Below are positions 9,322-17,648 of a stretch of 64,000 nt of DNA, one piece after another. Position 1 is the stretch's first letter. The number at the start of each line of letters is the position of its first letter. Under the pieces are notes generated by a model. That model was given only the letters and a program-made list of their open reading frames with translations. It was not told the origin of the DNA and ran no database searches. The position numbers were made by a program, and so were the translations under genes. The stretch is from Anaeromyxobacter sp. (lineage in GTDB: Bacteria; Myxococcota; Myxococcia; Myxococcales; Anaeromyxobacteraceae): the NCBI GenBank assembly GCA_049840735.1, contig JASGJN010000020.1:832001-896000 (forward strand), read 5' to 3'.

Positions 9322-11757
9322 GTGGATCCCCACGACAAGCGAGGAGCCGAGCGCGCGCCCGCCGCGATGCTGGTCCGCGTGGCGTATGGGTCCATCGACG
9401 AGTTCGCCGAGAAGTTCGCGGTGAACGTGTCGCGCGGCGGCGTGTTCCTCCGCACCCGCGAGCCCAGGCCGGTGGGCACGGCGCTGTCGCTGGAGCTGCG
9501 GCTCCAGGACGGCTCCGCCGCGCTCCGGGCCCGGGGGGTGGTGCGCTGGGTCCAGACCGAGGACCTGCACGCCCACCCGCCCCGCGCGCCCGGTATCGGC
9601 GTCCAGTTCACCTGGCTGGACGAGCCCTCGCGCGAGCTGCTGGAGCGCATGGTGGCGCTCCGCGAGCGCGCCACGGCGGGGGCGCCCGGCCCCACCCTCA
9701 CCCCGCCGCCCATCGCCGCGGGCGCGCCGGCCGCGCCGCCGGTGCTCACGCCGCCGCCCGCGCCGGCCGTCACCGCGCCGCCGGTCCTGACGCCCGCCCC
9801 GGCCTTCACCCCGCCCCCGGCGCGGGTCCGGCCGGCCACCACGCCCGGGCCCATCCCGGTGCTGACGCCCTCGCCGACCCGCTCGCCGCCGCCCATCCCG
9901 GCGCCCGCGCCCGCCGAGGCGGCGCCGCCCGAGGCCGTCACCCCGCCGCAGCCCCCGCGCATCCCGGCCCAGGCCGACCTCTCCGCCCCGCACCGGATCG
10001 AGCAGCTCTCGGCCGGCCCGGCCCGGCTCGCGATCGGCCTGCCCGACGCGCCCGAGCCCATCACCAGGCTCTCGCGCACCATCATCGGCATCGACCTCGG
10101 CACCACCAACTCCTGCGCGGCGGTGGTGAAGGACGGCCGGCCCTACGTGATCCCCTCGCGCGAGGGCTACAACACCGTCCCGTCCATCGTGGCGCTCAAC
10201 GCGCGCAACCGGATCGTGGTCGGCCACCTCGCCAAGGCGCAGCTGCTCACCAACCCGCGCGCCACGGTCTGGGGCGCCAAGCGGCTGGTGGGCCGCCCCT
10301 TCGACTCGCAGGTGGTGCAGGAGATCAAGAGCAAGTTCGCCTACGAGATCGTGGCCGGCCCGGACGGCCTGGCCGCGGTGCAGCTGGGGCCGGAGACGCT
10401 CACGCTGGAGCAGGTCTCGGCGCTGGTGCTGCGCGAGGTGAAGGAGGTCGCGCAGAACCACCTCGGCGAGGAGGTGAACCGGGCGGTCATCACCGTGCCG
10501 GCCTACTACAACGAGCGGCAGCGCGCCGCGGTCCGGCTGGCGGGCGCGCTGGCGGGGCTGCAGGTGGAGCGGATCCTCAACGAGCCCACCGCCGCCGCCA
10601 TCGCCTACGCCCACGGGCGCCACCTCACCCAGCGCGTGATGGTCTACGACCTGGGCGGCGGCACCTTCGACGCCTCGGTGCTGGAGCTCTCGGACAACGT
10701 CTACGAGGTGGTCTCGACCGGCGGCGACACGTTCCTGGGCGGCGTGGACTTCGACGCCCGCATCGTGGACCGGCTCCTGGCCGACTGGGAGGCCCGGACC
10801 GGCGCGCCGTTCGAGGGGGACCGCGTGGCGCTGTCGCGCCTGGTGGACGCGGCCGAGCGGGCCAAGTGCGGCCTCTCCGAGCGGACCGAGTTCCCCATCC
10901 AGCTGCCGTTCCTGGCCATGCGCGACGGCCAGCCGGTGGGGCTGGAGACGGCGCTGGGGCGCGACGCCGTGGTCGGGCTGGTGGAGCCGCTGGTGGACCG
11001 GACGCTGGAGGTCTGCCAGGAGGTGCTGGCGGCCAAGGACCTCACGCCCGCCGACGTGGAGGAGATCCTGCTGGTGGGCGGCCAGTCGCGCATGCCGCTG
11101 GTCCACGAGAAGGTGGCCGCCTTCTTCGGCCGGGCGCCCTCGCGCGCCGTCCACCCCGACGAGGCGGTGGCGGTGGGCGCGGCGCTGCTGGCCCACTCCC
11201 TGGGCAGCGCCGAGGGGATGGTGCTGATCGACGTGCTGCCCATGTCGATCAACATCGGCCTGCCCGGCGGCCGCGTGAAGACCATCATCGAGCGGAACAC
11301 GCCGCTGCCGGCGCGCAAGCAGTACGGGCTGGCCACCACCCGCGACGGCCAGACCGAGTTCGAGCTGGTGGTGCTGCAAGGCGAGGGGCCGGCGGCCACC
11401 GACTGCGAGTACCTGGGGACGCTGCGCCTGACCGGGCTGCCGGCCGGACCGCGCGGCATGGTGAAGATCGCCGTCACCTTCGAGCTGGGCGCCGAGTGCC
11501 TGCTCACCGTGACCGCCCGCGAGCTCAACACCGGGCGGCAGGTGCAGGCGGTCATGTCCACGGTGGACGGGCCGGAGGCCGCGCGCCGGAAGCTGGACGA
11601 CGGCCTGATGCGCGGGGCCACCGGGGCCATCCCGCTGCAGACCACGCCGCCGGGCGGCTTCCCGCGCCCGCCGGCAGCGCCTGAGGTGCCGCCCATGCGC
11701 AAGGTCGGCCTGGGCGGGCTGATCCGGCGGCTGCTGGGCCGGGGCGAGGCGCGCTGA
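9322..11757 (+). CDS. TIGR02266/PilZ-like domain + Pro-rich linker + Hsp70 (DnaK-like) fusion
   Basis: KRGAER...NVSRGGVF...GIGVQF PilZ-like; [40 protein letters not shown] Hsp70 motifs; GTG start inferred. Confidence 0.85.
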
Positions 11758-11763
11758 GGAAGG

Positions 11764-12492
11764 TCAGGTCCGGTCGGCCGGATCGCCGCGCGGGGCCTGG
11801 TCGGCCGGGGCCGCGTCGTCCGGGGCCGGCTCGCCCGCCGGCGAGGCGCGCCGCTGCTGCAGCCAGCGCAGCGTGAGCCCCAGCACCACCACCACCGCGG
11901 CGGCCAGGATCCACCAGCTGAAGCGGTGCGCCCAGTGCGCCGCCTCCTGGATGTTGGAGCCGAACCAGTAGCCCAGGCACACCCAGAGCGGCGCCGAGAC
12001 CAGCGCGGCCACGCCGTCGAAGAGCAGGAACTCCCAGTACGGCAGGCGGGAGTGGCCGGCGGTGAAGTAGGTCGGGGCGCGCAGCCCGGGCAGGAAGCGG
12101 GCCACCACCACCACCAGGTTGCCCCGCCGGCGCATCAGCTTCTCGACGTGCTCCAGCTTGGCGGGCGTGATCACGCGGCGCAGCGGGCGGAAGTCGGCCA
12201 CGTGCGCGCCGAAGCGCCGCCCCAGGAGGTAGATGGCCGAGTCGCCGACCAGGATGCCGGCCAGCCCGACCACGATCATGCCCAGCAGCCCGCGGTCGCG
12301 GAGCATGAGGTGGACGGTGGCCGCGTCGGCGTCGTTGGTGCGGGCCAGCCACGCCAGCACGCCGCCGGTGACCAGCACCACGTCCTCGGGCATGGGCAGC
12401 CCGAAGCCGCAGAGCACCAGCACCACGAAGACGAAGGCGAACCCGAGGTGGAGCGAGTGCCCCCCCAGCAGGTTGACCAGCCAGTCCAGCAT
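11764..12492 (-). CDS. DedA family membrane protein
   Basis: GLPMPED, GDSAIYLLGRRFG, ARFLPGLR motifs. Confidence 0.9.
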   Translation of the reverse strand: MLDWLVNLLGGHSLHLGFAFVFVVLVLCGFGLPMPEDVVLVTGGVLAWLARTNDADAATVHLMLRDRGLLGMIVVGLAGILVGDSAIYLLGRRFGAHVADFRPLRRVITPAKLEHVEKLMRRRGNLVVVVARFLPGLRAPTYFTAGHSRLPYWEFLLFDGVAALVSAPLWVCLGYWFGSNIQEAAHWAHRFSWWILAAAVVVVLGLTLRWLQQRRASPAGEPAPDDAAPADQAPRGDPADRT

Positions 12493-12627
12493 CCGCTCCC
12501 CTGCTCCTTCCGCGCAGCCCAGGGCTCCCCTGGGTGGCCGCGACCCGTCACGGGCGCGCGCCGAGCCCGCTTCGTACCGGAGTCCGGCCGCGCCGTCCAC
12601 CGGCGCGAGACCGTCCCGGCGACGACC

Positions 12628-13089
12628 TCACCCGCCTTGCGGCTTGAGCGCGGCCCGCTGGACGAGTTCGCGCGCCTCGCCCATGCGCGCGGCCAGGTCG
12701 GCCGCGATGGCCAGGGCCAGCTTCAGGCAGGCCTGGGGCTTGGTCGCCTGCAGCGCCAGGAAGTCGCGGTGGGCCAGCTCCACCACCTCGGTCTGGGAGG
12801 CGGCCACCGCCGAGACCAGCCGGACGCTGCGGGCCAGGATGCCCAGCTCGCCCAGGTGCTCCCCCGGGCCGAGCACGGTCAGCTCCCGCTCGCCGCCGTC
12901 GGACTTCTGGACCACGCGGACCGACCCGGCCTTCACGATGAAGAGCGACTCCCCCACCATGCTCTCCACGAAGAGCGGGCTGCCGGCAGGGAAGGCCTTC
13001 TCCTGCGCGATGCGCGCGAAGAGCTGGATCCCCACGTCGGAGAAGTCCTTGAAGAGCGTCGAGCTGCGCAGGGCCTCGGCCACCGTCAT
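12628..13089 (-). CDS. Cyclic nucleotide-binding domain protein
   Basis: LFIVKAGSVRV, LGPGEHLGELGIL, RLVSAVA cNMP fold; no HTH. Confidence 0.85.
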   Translation of the reverse strand: MTVAEALRSSTLFKDFSDVGIQLFARIAQEKAFPAGSPLFVESMVGESLFIVKAGSVRVVQKSDGGERELTVLGPGEHLGELGILARSVRLVSAVAASQTEVVELAHRDFLALQATKPQACLKLALAIAADLAARMGEARELVQRAALKPQGG

Positions 13090-13616
13090 CGCGCTGACCA
13101 CCCTTCCCTCACGTACTGCGCCGCGTAGGCCACGTAGTGGGCCGCGCTCACCGGCAGGTGCGCCAGCTCCTCCGGCGTGAGCGGGCGCTTCACCTTCGCC
13201 GGCTGCCCCAGCACCAGCGTGCCCGGGGGGACCACCATGCCCGGCGGGACCAGCGCCCCGGCGCCGACCATCGCGTCCGGGCCGATCACGGCCCCGTCCA
13301 GCACGATGGCCCCGATGCCGATCAGGCACCGGTCCTTGACCGTACAGCCGTGCAGCACGGCGCGGTGACCGACCGTGACGTCGTCGCCGAGGGTGGTGGG
13401 ATGGGTGTGCGAGGTCACGTGGACCACGCACTGGTCCTGGAGGTTGGTGCGGGCGCCGATGCGGACGGCGTTCACGTCACCGCGGACGACGGCCCCGAAC
13501 CAGAGCGAGCCGCCCTCCCCGATCTCCACGTCCCCGATCACCGCGCTGCCCTCCATCACGAAGACCGATGGGTGCAGGCGCGGCGACTTTCCGCCGAACG
13601 GCCGGATGATCGCCAT
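13086..13616 (-). CDS. Gamma carbonic anhydrase family protein (YrdA/CaiE-like)
   Basis: IGDVEIG, VVRGDVN, NLQD, VH, VGHRAVLHGC hexapeptide repeats with His ligands. Confidence 0.92.
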   Translation of the reverse strand: MAIIRPFGGKSPRLHPSVFVMEGSAVIGDVEIGEGGSLWFGAVVRGDVNAVRIGARTNLQDQCVVHVTSHTHPTTLGDDVTVGHRAVLHGCTVKDRCLIGIGAIVLDGAVIGPDAMVGAGALVPPGMVVPPGTLVLGQPAKVKRPLTPEELAHLPVSAAHYVAYAAQYVREGWSAR

Positions 13617-13860
13617 CAACGGCGGATGCTAAGAGATGTCCCACGGTTCGCCAAGTGGCAAAGCGTGGGCCAGGTCGGTTCGCCATCGGGCCCGCTCGGG
13701 CGTGGTCTGGCTTTCGCCAGCCTCATCCCGGGTTGGGCCCGTGGCCGTGCCGACGATTCGCCGAGCCACCGGCTTGCTTGCCGGTGTGGACGTCCGCCAT
13801 GCGAAGGACGGCTCGCGGGCGAAGAGGTCGGTTGACTCGGACCGGGCGTCTTGCCGCCCG
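13612..13860 (-). ncRNA. Putative omega-RNA scaffold plus flanking guide
   Basis: Nested stems at the tnpB 3' end and element end, including CUGGC-GAAA-GCCAG and CACCGGC/GCCGGTG; boundaries are inferred. Confidence 0.55.
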
Positions 13861-15614
13861 AGACAGCAAGGGCTTCGAAGAAGGCTCCCGATTTGTTCGC
13901 GGGCGCGCTTGGTCGCATCGTAGTCGACGCGCGCCGAGCCGGGCTCGCCGGGCCGATTGAGGACGAGGAAGGCGCCGAGGACCGCGGAGACGGCGTCCCT
14001 GTCCCCTTCCAGCCCGCATCGGGGGCAACGGTGGACCCGTTCGGCAAGCGACTTCTCCACCCGGGCGCCGCAGGGGCAGTGCTGGGACAGGGCTGTGGTC
14101 TGCGTGGGGATCCGGACCACGCCGCCAACGCCCCCGGCAAACGCAGCGACGGCCCGAGCCTCCCGGTCGATGGCAGCGACCAGCGTCCCCGGCGTGAACG
14201 CGGCCACACCGCGCCCCCATCTGCGCGCCCAGACGGAGATGGCCACGTCCTCGACGAAGAGGCGGTAGCCGTGAGTCCGCACAACCTCTGCCGCGGACTG
14301 CCGAGCCCGGCCGCGCCGTGCCTGGCCGCACGACGCTGCATCGGCAGCCTGCGCTGCGCGGAGAAGGCGGTAGCGCTTCGAGAGCGAGTCCCGCCGGTGG
14401 GCCTGGAGCGGGACGCCATCGAACCGCGCCAACCGTGGACCTCCAGGGATCACCTCGACCGGCGGGAGGCCGGCGGCAGCCCGCCGGCGGGCCCGCTTCT
14501 CCTGCCGCCTGGAGAGCTGGTACTCCGCCCGGTTTGCCGCCCGGCGCGACCGCTCCAGGGCACGCTGCCTGCGCCGTTCACGGCGCTTGCGACCCCGGTC
14601 CCGCACCTTGGCCTGGCCGTCCAGCTCCATCTTTGTGAGCCGCAGGCCCGCCCCAGCCATCTGGGAGACGACAGTCAAGTTGGACACGTTGACGTCAATC
14701 CCCGCCATGCGCTCCGCTTCGTCCTTGGCCGCCGCTTCCCGCCGCGCCTGCGTCGAAGGTGAGACGTACGGCTGGGCGAGGACCATCAGATGCGCCTCGT
14801 ACCGCCAGCCACCGGGCGCATACGGCGCGCGCGTACGCACGAGGTCGACCTTGTGCCAGCGGGCCGGGTCGACCAGGTGATGGTCCAGGATGGGCTGGTT
14901 GCACGGGGCGGTGGGGAGACGGACCGGCAGGACCAGGGCGCCTCCAGCCAGGCCGCTGAAGACCAGGGCCAGCGGCCCCTGGTAGGCCCACCAGTCGGTT
15001 CGCGGGGCAGCGGCCTCGGGGAGCTGGAGTCGCCTCGGCTGCACGAAGCTGCCGTCTGGCCTGGTGTACCTGGCCCGGTGGCCGGCGAGGGAGCCGTGGA
15101 GCCGGAAAGTCTCCCATTTCCGCTCCCGGGTGTGTGAGCGGGCCCGGCCAGGGAGCCGGGTGAAGTCGAACCAGCGCCCGACGTGGAGGAGCCCATGCCG
15201 CTTGCCGGTAGCGTCGGGGAACAGGTGGCGCTCCACCGACGTCCAGACCGAGTCGGCAAGGTGCATCGCCAGCGCCTTGGTGACGTTCCGCCGGAGGTGA
15301 GGCGCCGCGTCGAGGTGGGCGTAGGCTGTCTGCTCCAGCGCCTCACGCGTGAGTCCCAGTCTGGTGCGGGTCTCGGAGGCGCTTCGGGCCCGCGCATCCC
15401 CCGCCGCCCAGTAGGCCCGCACCCGGTCCCTTGCCGTCCGCTGCAGCGCTCGCCGGAGCTGGTAGGCCCCGGAGAAGATTCCCTCGAGCCGACGTCGCTG
15501 CACCGGGTCGTGGATGTCCAGCGCGAGCCGCAGCACAGAGAGCCCGTCCTCGGGCCGGCGGCTCCAGGGCCGCTGCCGGTTCGGACCACGGGTTGGCTTG
15601 GCAGACGCGCTCAC
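13629..15614 (-). CDS. tnpB: TnpB/Cas12-like RNA-guided RuvC endonuclease (C2c8/V-U2-like clade), ~661 aa
   Basis: RuvC-I AGIDVNVS, Arg-rich bridge region, RuvC-II LFVEDV, TTALSQHCPCG..HRCPRC zinc finger, RuvC-III DRDAVSA; GTG 15614 preferred as start, the ORF extends to 15821. Confidence 0.85.
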   Translation of the reverse strand: MSASAKPTRGPNRQRPWSRRPEDGLSVLRLALDIHDPVQRRRLEGIFSGAYQLRRALQRTARDRVRAYWAAGDARARSASETRTRLGLTREALEQTAYAHLDAAPHLRRNVTKALAMHLADSVWTSVERHLFPDATGKRHGLLHVGRWFDFTRLPGRARSHTRERKWETFRLHGSLAGHRARYTRPDGSFVQPRRLQLPEAAAPRTDWWAYQGPLALVFSGLAGGALVLPVRLPTAPCNQPILDHHLVDPARWHKVDLVRTRAPYAPGGWRYEAHLMVLAQPYVSPSTQARREAAAKDEAERMAGIDVNVSNLTVVSQMAGAGLRLTKMELDGQAKVRDRGRKRRERRRQRALERSRRAANRAEYQLSRRQEKRARRRAAAGLPPVEVIPGGPRLARFDGVPLQAHRRDSLSKRYRLLRAAQAADAASCGQARRGRARQSAAEVVRTHGYRLFVEDVAISVWARRWGRGVAAFTPGTLVAAIDREARAVAAFAGGVGGVVRIPTQTTALSQHCPCGARVEKSLAERVHRCPRCGLEGDRDAVSAVLGAFLVLNRPGEPGSARVDYDATKRAREQIGSLLRSPCCLGRQDARSESTDLFAREPSFAWRTSTPASKPVARRIVGTATGPTRDEAGESQTTPERARWRTDLAHALPLGEPWDIS

Positions 15615-15875
15615 CCGCTCATCGTGAATCCGGACCCTGACATTCCGTTCAGCACGACGGAGCAGGTCGTCCGCGGATCGACGGCGACCAAACCGGATCG
15701 TTCGCGACGCCGGCCTGGCGCCGTCACCGCAAAGCGCGCCCGCGTCGAGCACGTCCTCGCTCGCCTCAACGACTGGAGCGTCCTCGGGACCACCGCCGAC
15801 GGGGGTGCCACCCGAATGCACCGTCGCCGCCCGGCCTTCCTCTACGACCTCAAGCTCGAAGTTCGGGACGCCTCT
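13632..15875. mobile_element. Non-autonomous TIR element (IS5/ISL2-derived) carrying a TnpB-like nuclease
   Basis: Ends AGAGATGTCCC (13632-13642) and GGGACGCCTCT (15865-15875) form a 9/11 inverted repeat; flanked by TA (13630-31) and TG (15876-77); removing it restores the vanZ frame (..ARASIRR*) with a TGATG overlap into the next gene. Confidence 0.85.
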
Positions 15876-15878
15876 TGG
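15690..15878 (+). pseudogene. 3' relic of an IS5-family (ISL2/IS112-like, Harbinger-related) DDE transposase
   Basis: Across frameshifts reads NRIVRD..WRRHRK/RARVEHVLARLNDWSVL/RDHRRRG../AFLYDLKLEVRDAS; contains the R..VE...ARL..W catalytic-Glu signature and ends in the right TIR. Confidence 0.75.
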
Positions 15879-16260
15879 CCCGCGCCCCGGCGCGCCGCAA
15901 GGCGATGGTCACCGCGACCGCGCCGGCCAGCGCCCCGGCGGTATCGGCGGCCCAGTCGGTCGGGTCGCTGGAGCGGCCCGGCACGTAGGCCTGGTGCCAC
16001 TCGTCGGTCACGCCGTAGAGGCTGCCCACCGCGGCGGCCAGCAGCAGCACGCGCGCAGATCGGACCCCCGCCGCGTGCAGGGCGCCGGCCAGCAGCGCGC
16101 CCAGCACCGCGTAGCCCGCGCCGTGCGAGAGCTTGTCGTGCAGGAGGAAGGCCTCGGGGAACGGCGGCCGGGCGAGCGACGAGAGCCAGGCGATGAGCCC
16201 GGCCCACGCCACCGCGGCGAGCCCCAGCGCCAGGGCGGTGCGCCTCGCTGCGCCGCTCAC
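15850..16260 (-). CDS. VanZ family membrane protein (C-terminus altered by the insertion)
   Basis: DKLSHGAGY, YGVTDEWHQAYVPGR, DWAADTAG motifs; GTGA overlap with the miaB stop. Confidence 0.85.
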   Translation of the reverse strand: MSGAARRTALALGLAAVAWAGLIAWLSSLARPPFPEAFLLHDKLSHGAGYAVLGALLAGALHAAGVRSARVLLLAAAVGSLYGVTDEWHQAYVPGRSSDPTDWAADTAGALAGAVAVTIALRRAGARAKRRPELRA

Positions 16261-17648
16261 GCCAGCACGCCAGAGAGCGAGCTGCCCCCGGAGCGGGTGA
16301 TGCGCGCGCGCACCAGCGCGCCGGCCGGGGCCTCCGCCTCGCTCGCCGCCAGGTGGACCATCCGGTTCTCCGGGGTCCGTCCCAGCCGCTCGCCGGGCTC
16401 CTCCGACGGGCCCTCCACCAGCACCTCCACCTCGGCCCCGAGCTGGCTGGCCAGGATCCCGACGGCGATGTGGCGCTGGGCGGCCAGCATCCGCTCCAGC
16501 CGCGCCACCGCCAGCTCGCGCGGCACCTCCTGCCACTCCGGCCCGGAGCCGAGCCGCAGGCTGGCCACCGTGTGCGGCCGCGGGCTGAAGACGAAGGCGA
16601 AGATCTGCTCGTAGCGCGCCCGCTCCAGCAGGGCCATGGAGCGCTCGAAGTCCTGGTCCGTCTCGCCCGGGAAGCCCACGATGAAGTCGGTGGTGACGGC
16701 GATGCCGGGGCGCGCCGCGCGCAGCCGGTCGAAGCGCTCCAGGTACGCCTCCACCCCGTAGTCGCGCCGCATCCGCGCCAGCACCGGGTCCGAGCCGGAC
16801 TGCACCGGCAGGTGGAAGTGCGGCATCACCTTGGGCTCGTCGCGGAAGGCCTCGATGAGCGCGTCGGAGAGGTCGTGGGGGTGGCTGGTGGTGAAGCGGA
16901 TGCGGGCGATCCCCGGCACCGCCGCCACGCGCCGGAGCAGGTCGGCGAAGGTGCAGCGGCCGGCGTAGGAGTTGACGTTCTGGCCGATGAGCGTCACCTC
17001 GCGGACGCCCACCTCGGCCAGCGCGGCGCACTCGGCCACCACCTCCGGGAACGGCCGCGACACCTCGCGGCCGCGGGTGTGCGGCACGATGCAGAAGGCG
17101 CAGACGTTGTCGCAGCCCTTCATGGCGGTGACGAAGGCGGTGGCCCGCCCCCGGGCCGCCTCCGGGTCGGCGCGGGGGAAGACGTACTCCTCCGAGTCCA
17201 TCCACCCGGTCTCGGCGAACCGCTCGCTGGCCCGCGCGCGGGCCACCAGCTCCGGCAGCCTGCCGATGTTGTCCGGCCCGAAGACGAAGTCCACGTAGGG
17301 GACCCGCTGCAGCAGCCGGTCCTTCTCCTGCTGCGCCACGCAGCCGGAGACGGCGATCAGCGCCCCGCGGCGCGCCTTCACCTCGCGGTAGCGCCCCAGC
17401 GCCGATAGCAGCTTCTGCTCCGCCTTCTCGCGCACCGCGCAGGTGTTGAGCAGGATGAGGTCGGCCTCGTCCGGCGTGGCGGCGCGGCCGAAGGCGTGGC
17501 GGCCCAGCAGCTCGACCATGCGGTCGGAGTCCGACTCGTTCATCTGGCAGCCGAAGGTGTGGACGTACACCTTCTGCGCCGGCGGCGCGGACGGCGCCGG
17601 GGCGGGCTCGCCGGCGGGCTTCCTGGTGAGCGGGACGAGATCGGACAC
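16257..17648 (-). CDS. miaB: tRNA ms2i6A37 methylthiotransferase
   Basis: TFGCQMNESDS, NTCAVREKAE, GCDNVCAFCIVP, FIVGFPGET, C-terminal TRAM domain. Confidence 0.95.
   Translation of the reverse strand: MSDLVPLTRKPAGEPAPAPSAPPAQKVYVHTFGCQMNESDSDRMVELLGRHAFGRAATPDEADLILLNTCAVREKAEQKLLSALGRYREVKARRGALIAVSGCVAQQEKDRLLQRVPYVDFVFGPDNIGRLPELVARARASERFAETGWMDSEEYVFPRADPEAARGRATAFVTAMKGCDNVCAFCIVPHTRGREVSRPFPEVVAECAALAEVGVREVTLIGQNVNSYAGRCTFADLLRRVAAVPGIARIRFTTSHPHDLSDALIEAFRDEPKVMPHFHLPVQSGSDPVLARMRRDYGVEAYLERFDRLRAARPGIAVTTDFIVGFPGETDQDFERSMALLERARYEQIFAFVFSPRPHTVASLRLGSGPEWQEVPRELAVARLERMLAAQRHIAVGILASQLGAEVEVLVEGPSEEPGERLGRTPENRMVHLAASEAEAPAGALVRARITRSGGSSLSGVLA

Follow-up and report, generated by a model that had tools for sequence, protein, structure and literature searches.

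Omega-RNAs that overlap the 3' end of a tnpB gene and take their guide from the flank of the element are already established, and TnpB proteins borne by DDE elements have already been reported. The text of Altae-Tran et al. (2023, PMC10691335) describes, on computational grounds, six DDE-associated TnpB branches with inverted repeats (DDE-1 to DDE-6), and a 2026 review (PMC13565253) names, in the sections available, ISL2, IS630 and IS1031 as partners of the DDE branches and treats TnpB in cut-and-paste DDE elements as rare and unexplained. The tested prokaryotic TnpBs that we found in print come from elements that excise scarlessly, and the literature searched, which covered few subscription papers, yielded no experimental study of a TnpB borne by an ISL2 or IS5 element. 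In the present study, we analyzed 64,000 nucleotides of an Anaeromyxobacter genome (contig JASGJN010000020.1, positions 832,001 to 896,000; hereafter the window), in which a tnpB-like gene ends at the right end of an IS5-type DDE element (Table 1). We propose, with a probability of roughly 80%, that the RNA encoded at this gene end is an omega-RNA that would guide the TnpB-like protein, with about 16 bases of host flank, to cut the empty CTAG site. What is new here is a predicted pseudoknot of the 5' loop AAGA with the terminal UCUU, which uses a T of the target duplication.

Table 1. Features of the element and its surroundings, in window coordinates
Feature	Position	Strand	Remarks
Hexapeptide-repeat host gene	13086..13616	-	Pfam Hexapep; start codon inside predicted guide
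Predicted 16-nt guide, host flank	13613..13628	-	CAUCCGCCGUUGAUGG; start inferred from pseudoknot register
tnpB-like ORF	13629..15614	-	~661 aa; RuvC D307, E455, D540; zinc finger CPCG/CPRC; terminal TAG as stop
Predicted omega-RNA scaffold	13629..13860	-	~230 nt; overlaps codons ~585-661 and the stop codon
Right TA target-site duplication	13630..13631	-	Left counterpart 15876-15877 altered in window copy
Pseudoknot 3' strand UCUU	13631..13634	-	Its final U corresponds to the T in the duplicated TA
IS5-type DDE element	13632..15875	-	Terminal inverted repeats are short (AGAG-n-TGTCCC in the family consensus); window copy has a degenerate left end
3' stem with right inverted repeat, variable inner hairpin	13637..13672	-	78% of cells paired; double changes at 7/8 pairs
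Long interrupted stem-loop	13674..13754	-	Includes the CGGGCCC and CUGGC stems of the initial annotation
5' domain	13761..13840	-	Closed by 13840-13835/13766-13761; inner hairpins 13816-13801, 13785-13768
5' hairpin P1, loop GCAAGA	13843..13860	-	Pairs 38-49 and 39-48 of alignment A2 double-changed in 15 and 28 of 73
Pseudoknot 5' strand AAGA, in P1 loop	13849..13852	-	Complements terminal UCUU
Initial annotation: CCCACG/CGTGGG	13640/13664
Initial annotation: CGGGCCC/GGGCCCG	13687/13735
Initial annotation: CUGGC-GAAA-GCCAG	13720-13707
Initial annotation: TTCGCC/GGCGAA	13757/13818
Initial annotation: CGAGCC/GGCTCG	13762/13810
Initial annotation: CACCGGC/GCCGGTG	13767/13780
Initial annotation: CGTCC/GGACG	13791/13806
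DDE transposase C-terminal remnant, frameshifted	15681..15875	+	Divergent from tnpB; from translation
vanZ-like host gene	15850..16245	-	Pfam VanZ 41.4 bits; 3' end interrupted by element

The element is 2.2 kb long and has five further copies in the same genome. The right end GGGACA-n-CTCT-TAG is common to all copies, and the left end C-TA-GGAGCTGTCCC is found in four of them; a repeat search of the window missed the terminal repeats of the element, which are short and degenerate. Scans for homologous loci gave 130 (50 from genomes and 80 from metagenomes), and the RuvC-III codon could be anchored in 105. The 3' end of tnpB thus coincides with the end of a mobile element present as six copies with differing flanks, and 97 of the 105 anchored loci share the right-end motif, the other eight being truncated or divergent. 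The left-end motif was detected in 66 of the 115 loci that include the gene start (59 non-redundant). C precedes TA in 58/59 left ends and G follows TA in 79/79 right ends. Furthermore, of 16 orthologous loci of the same genus, 15 have CTAG at the uninterrupted vanZ junction. The empty sites therefore indicate that the target is CTAG and that TA is duplicated, and they led us to reject ends of the form CTAA..TTAG without duplication. Terminal inverted repeats with a short target-site duplication are as in IS5-type DDE elements.

CTAG is scarce in the G000 genome (1415 seen, 6392 expected). Among the 54 right flanks that are long enough, the opposite-strand frame of the TAG has at least 100 open codons in 42, and the other frames in 27 and 13; insertions favour host stop codons, and the element end then provides a TAA stop. 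At the window locus, the downstream host gene (13086..13616) presumably encodes a gamma carbonic anhydrase-like protein, a label taken from the initial annotation. The target lies within a conserved TAGCAT 7-10 nt ahead of the downstream start codon in 15/16 relatives (window 13616-13631; L158-L173), and this sequence may resemble the -10 box of a leaderless transcript.

The transposase of the family has about 250 residues and is encoded on the opposite strand, ~780 nt upstream of tnpB, and its gene likewise ends at the target TA. It combines HTH_Tnp_4 and DDE_Tnp_4 domains (above the cut-off in 2/3 and 3/3 homologues, respectively). Its best NCBIfam match is NF033581 (IS5_4), with 38.6-50.2 bits against an IS5 cut-off of 140. 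The element may belong to the ISL2-like, PIF/Harbinger-related subgroup of the IS5 family. Of 59 homologous left ends, 31 retain an open transposase frame, so that many intact two-gene elements exist. For the window genome, one query against the 94%-complete assembly found only remnants and no intact transposase, and the left end of the window copy departs from the family consensus at three positions, TA included. Because of this altered end and the lack of an intact transposase in the assembly, the window copy is probably stranded and unable to vacate its site. Its tnpB is the only intact one among the six copies in the genome.

Four other copies in the genome retain most or all of the RNA. 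A mini-copy of 550 bp (G000:C13:617628-618179) has both ends, the N-terminus of the transposase and the whole RNA (218 bits) without tnpB, and could supply a guide in trans. At G000:C16:37960-38045, the C16 copy stands directly behind the apparent decayed right end of an older copy ending in CTAG, and at about 686550-687040 of G000:C22, inspection by eye revealed a tandem array of ~10 copies of a ~51-nt unit, 1.1 kb past the C22 copy. Two divergent copies (L152:4207-4493 and L126:3633-3892) have altered terminal bases without the TAG and early tail stops (63 and 109 codons), as fits copies that decayed once they were immobile.

From its homologues, the tnpB-like ORF appears to start with GTG at 15614, and it stops with the TAG at 13631-13629. 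The initial annotation had the nuclease ORF continue ~120 codons beyond RuvC-III to the end of the element, and we count 121 codons from the RuvC-III aspartate (D540, codon at 13997) to this stop. The protein narrowly passes Pfam PF07282 (TNB; 26.8 bits, cut-off 26.3) and is far below the cut-off of NCBIfam guided_TnpB (38.6, cut-off 100) as well as those of the IS607 (23.7, cut-off 350) and IS200 (13.7, cut-off 425) models. With a DDE partner, inverted repeats, a TA duplication and these low scores, membership in IS200/IS605 or IS607 was rejected. The split-RuvC D-E-D triad is intact and is accompanied by the zinc-finger TNB domain, as in TnpB/OMEGA nucleases. The top Foldseek matches are Cas12f, Cas12m and TnpB (19 at E<=0.001), obtained with a weak protein model (pLDDT 63, pTM 0.43, below 50 in the RuvC-I region; TM-scores up to 0.24), and an ESM Atlas search returned TNB-domain clusters only. 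The nuclease family is large: of 8000 proteins scored, 920 reach E<=0.001. Among homologues with a named source, the closest come from Anaeromyxobacter-type and Kofleriaceae genomes. We predict that the system works like a TnpB OMEGA system outside IS605 and IS607.

The protein is about 250 residues longer than typical TnpB and its fold matches include the DNA-binding Cas12m, which would suit a complex that carries a real guide but mainly binds DNA without cutting it, or that works in choosing targets or regulating transposition and not in homing. In addition, the benefit of a nuclease is unclear where cut-and-paste excision already leaves a break, as the review (PMC13565253) points out in the part available. 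However, D307, E455 and D540 are invariant or nearly so among 35 proteins (alignment A1), the RuvC-III position is D in 104/105 loci, and the guides differ per insertion and are not conserved; we regard such a binding role as improbable.

The last ~230 nt of the gene had been described in the initial annotation as nested stems of an omega-RNA overlapping the nuclease tail. Both strands of the 3' region fold better than shuffled sequences (z -3.81 for the tnpB strand, -4.33 for its complement; 0/200 shuffles each), and therefore energy gives neither proof nor strand; as strand evidence it was rejected. Among 22 tiled 232-nt windows between 11.1 and 16.6 kb, this region gives the lowest z (-4.32; -5.26 for 13629-13860). 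Since both strands fold equally well and one unrelated tiled window reaches -3.34, the hairpins could be ascribed to chance, arising from high G+C and conserved protein sequence, and three stems of the initial annotation are indeed not conserved. We thus turned to homologues. The tails were reduced to 79 at <92% identity (mean 65%) and 73 were aligned, leaving out L046, L049, L052, L068, L132 and L148 as divergent or odd-ended; the covariance model later matched the five of these that were searched. RNAalifold on the 73 homologues gave 45 pairs, 31 of them double-changed. In an unbiased all-against-all scan of column pairs (G-test with APC, our own implementation), the ten best-ranked were all base pairs, canonical in 88-100% of the sequences, including 217-254, 230-244, 210-260, 193-277 and 194-276 of the long stem-loop. 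At E<0.05, eight pairs are significant against 20 R-scape-like tree nulls, and a stricter column-rate null leaves three to four. The 64-pair structure has changes on both sides in 46/64 pairs and 89.5% of cells paired, a figure favoured by its derivation from the same 73-sequence alignment; slid partners pair in 33-41% of cells and 0/500 shuffles reach its level. Helices 4 and 6 are weak (67% and 65% paired) and helix 11 is moderate (78%). The closing helix of the 5' domain is 99.8% paired, and its hairpin pair 83-93 is double-changed in 36/73. Because the homologues are kin, all of these counts overstate independence.

Constraint on synonymous sites agrees with the covariation. In 17 disjoint pairs, dS is 0.50-0.53 in the core and three-fold lower, 0.167, over codons 585-661, and four-fold sites conserved at >=90% make up 13/21 in the overlap and 5/174 in the core. 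No such drop is seen in the transposase's final 77 codons, at the opposite end of the element (0.69 vs 0.62; 9 pairs). Nucleotide conservation stays at 1.00 up to and including the terminal G and falls to background, 0.31, with the first flank base, the drop that the initial annotation had expected at the element end. Furthermore, the compensatory pairs in P1 swap the encoded residues W/R and T/A/I/V, which a conserved protein sequence does not account for. The covariation scan, the paired-cell test, the fall of dS and the constraint-free transposase end refute chance folding, which we consider next to negligible. Thus, a conserved base-paired RNA, likely an omega-RNA, is encoded at the tnpB-like gene's 3' end, and covariation in the last ~250 nt, which the initial annotation had named as the check, was found.

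The details of the earlier fold fared unevenly. All seven of its stem pairs are present in the window. CCCACG, CGGGCCC and CUGGC hold across the 73 homologues, as does the outer CACC part of CACCGGC. The three others do not belong to the family fold, with single pairs of TTCGCC/GGCGAA and CGAGCC/GGCTCG in 8/73 and 24/73 and pairs of CGTCC/GGACG in 25/73 and 33/73; as judged from the alignment, they are window-specific alternatives. The GNRA loop used to assign the strand occurs in only 4/73. The strand follows instead from the 255 G-U against 50 A-C cells in the tnpB-strand reading of the 73 homologues, which place the RNA on the tnpB strand. The window copy forms 57 of 60 family pairs at a cost of 0.3 kcal/mol relative to the minimum, and the covariance model scores its RNA at 220 bits and also matches seven divergent loci at 46-69 bits. 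Rfam gave 0 matches in window positions 10000-17000, and only one irrelevant 25-bit snoRNA match in five homologous loci.

The 5' hairpin and the pseudoknot were absent from the earlier list of stems. Three pseudoknot positions are invariant or G-U and the fourth, at the loop end, varies: it is A-U in 67, G-C in 3, A-C in 2 and a gap in 1 of the 73 sequences. Outside the alignment, L070, L072, L148 and L152 have G-C, and L068 has G-A. On the protein tree, the G-C state arose independently at least three times. Comparison of homologues thus shows a pseudoknot between the 5' loop and the terminal bases. Compensation occurred in no fewer than three lineages; the support is one covarying position, and A-C in two lineages and G-A in one divergent locus break the pairing. 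The left ends serve as an internal control: the two repeat bases beside TA vary in 0/79 sequences at the RNA end and in 8/59 each at the left ends (Fisher p 0.0009, overstated by kinship). For the invariant T at -4, we considered the pseudoknot and the avoidance of a self-directed TAM, which explain it equally. By this comparative evidence, the right end carries a structured RNA closed by a pseudoknot, as in TnpB/OMEGA systems.

The tail also keeps its reading frame. As the initial annotation had suggested for this copy, it runs to the element end, with in-frame reading to the terminal, target-supplied TAG in 65/79 homologues (14/79 not), and the repeat-encoded [RW][DE]xx forms the C-terminus of 102 of 119 database proteins. 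In 66 tails of in-frame length, stops within the RNA part occur in 1 in frame 0, compared with 21 and 33 in the other frames; shuffling of variable columns gave 42 stop-bearing tails on average over the whole tail. Of 154 length changes between anchors, 129 are multiples of three (26/45 classes; 75/79 sequences anchored, two with mis-hit anchors), and 12 of the 25 non-triplet changes fall within the last 20 codons. On the other hand, the tail is broken in 12/70 homologues with an intact core, and its dN/dS of 0.75 indicates weak selection on the peptide. Residues 581-661 are modelled at pLDDT <50, as low as some other segments, and with this dN/dS a folded C-terminal domain is unsupported. In ISDra2, the residues encoded over the RNA are disordered and dispensable, according to the available text (PMC10097598). 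The stop and length statistics show selection for an open frame up to the target-supplied stop, with the peptide under weak selection only; since the frame is kept while the peptide is poorly constrained, the peptide seems largely a by-product of the selected frame. Distant relatives (P0121-P0261) have post-RuvC-III tails of 100-136 residues with unrelated sequence, several ending in RNSS, RDSS or RVNS; because these ends are repeat-like, read-through to the element end may be clade-wide.

A frame kept through the fold means that the region acts as mRNA, and the 3' stem is built from the inverted repeat itself. The fold might thus be a cis element of the tnpB mRNA (for stability, termination or control of translation) or a DNA-level end for the transposase, with no guide. 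However, the opposite end is bound by the same transposase and has no constraint on synonymous sites, and the tolerance of G-U points to RNA. Moreover, as in the guides of TnpB and Fanzor2, closure of the pseudoknot falls exactly on the element end, and the tnpB-less C13 mini-copy retains the whole fold. A guide-less cis element therefore seems very improbable to us.

The preferred reading, an omega-RNA with a guide from the flank, requires a guide start. In ISDra2, positions -5 to -3 are paired, -6 and -2 are non-canonical and -1 is free before the guide, as far as the available text goes (PMC10097598). The pseudoknot here pairs -6 to -3, and A and G follow. By analogy, the guide probably starts at C13628, after UAG, with a TAM of 5'-CTAG. 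The pseudoknot of Fanzor2 is stated, in the text available, to pair through the last scaffold base (PMC11832414), and because of this a register shift of one or two bases is possible. A TAM of CTA, to which the initial annotation would have reduced it, is doubtful, as the register points to CTAG instead, and any other TAM is still less to be expected. The earlier proposal that the guide comes from the flank holds in that the empty vanZ/gamma-carbonic-anhydrase junction carries the predicted flank; the guide start is moved one base later. With TTAG at its filled right junction, the element would escape self-cutting. A search elsewhere in the genome for CTAG-preceded matches to the predicted guides of five copies found none, and the empty sites of relatives match the predicted guide at 7-15 of 16 bases.

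The most likely course of events is as follows. A transcript would run through the right end into the flank and then be processed to the RNA; self-processing has been reported for another TnpB, in the part of the source available (PMC10278001). Once released from the tnpB transcript, the RNA would bind TnpB, and the complex would cut the CTAG-plus-flank site left empty by cut-and-paste excision, so that repair from a filled sister copy might restore the element (homing). This model requires that excision restores CTAG exactly, which may be so by analogy to eukaryotic PIF/Harbinger elements, for which precise excision is reported in the text available (PMC4561436). Expression, processing and homing are all inferred, and for the window copy the cycle of re-cutting is probably broken. 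More speculatively, and we would sooner expect some part of it to fail, a bacterial Harbinger-like element would complete its guide RNA only on insertion, the target TA giving the last pseudoknot pair, both stop codons and the TAM, with selected translation of the whole RNA, precise excision and CTAG-directed homing. The selected read-through could, for example, bring newly made TnpB together in cis with the transcript that encodes it, or extend transcription into the flank. If true, precise excision with homing to CTAG would explain why DDE elements retain an RNA-guided nuclease.

Among the described systems, the DDE-1 to DDE-6 branches are alike in having TnpB in an inverted-repeat DDE element, with the gene end near the element end, and transposase-less copies with the same ends (PMC10691335, text), and the window family is probably one of them. 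For the ISL2-type branch, the text of that paper gives no RNA structure, pseudoknot, target site, TAM or experiment, which its figure and data files may hold. IS5 elements share the ~250-aa HTH_Tnp_4 and DDE_Tnp_4 transposase, short inverted repeats and a short duplication; the present element differs in carrying a divergent tnpB and in a transposase below the NCBIfam IS5 cut-offs. The family offers a concrete model, with an RNA fold, a covariance model, a pseudoknot, a predicted guide start, a CTAG TAM and intact two-gene elements.

[quoted passage not shown] It differs in its Y1 transposase, the lack of inverted repeats and duplication, its 408 residues and a stop inside the element, whereas the window family has ~660 residues, takes the stop and the last three scaffold bases from the target, and has no Rfam match. 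Its pseudoknot includes a base of the duplication and would thereby make the RNA dependent on TA targets. In Fanzor1 and Fanzor2 of eukaryotic DDE transposons, the 3' duplication is likewise in the scaffold and the 5' one would join the TAM, as outlined in the review (PMC13565253, sections available); Fanzor1 has lost the pseudoknot according to the same source, whereas the window family, in a bacterial host, keeps it. The family thus parallels, in a bacterium, the arrangement of Fanzor in DDE elements, and adds a large nuclease family to it.
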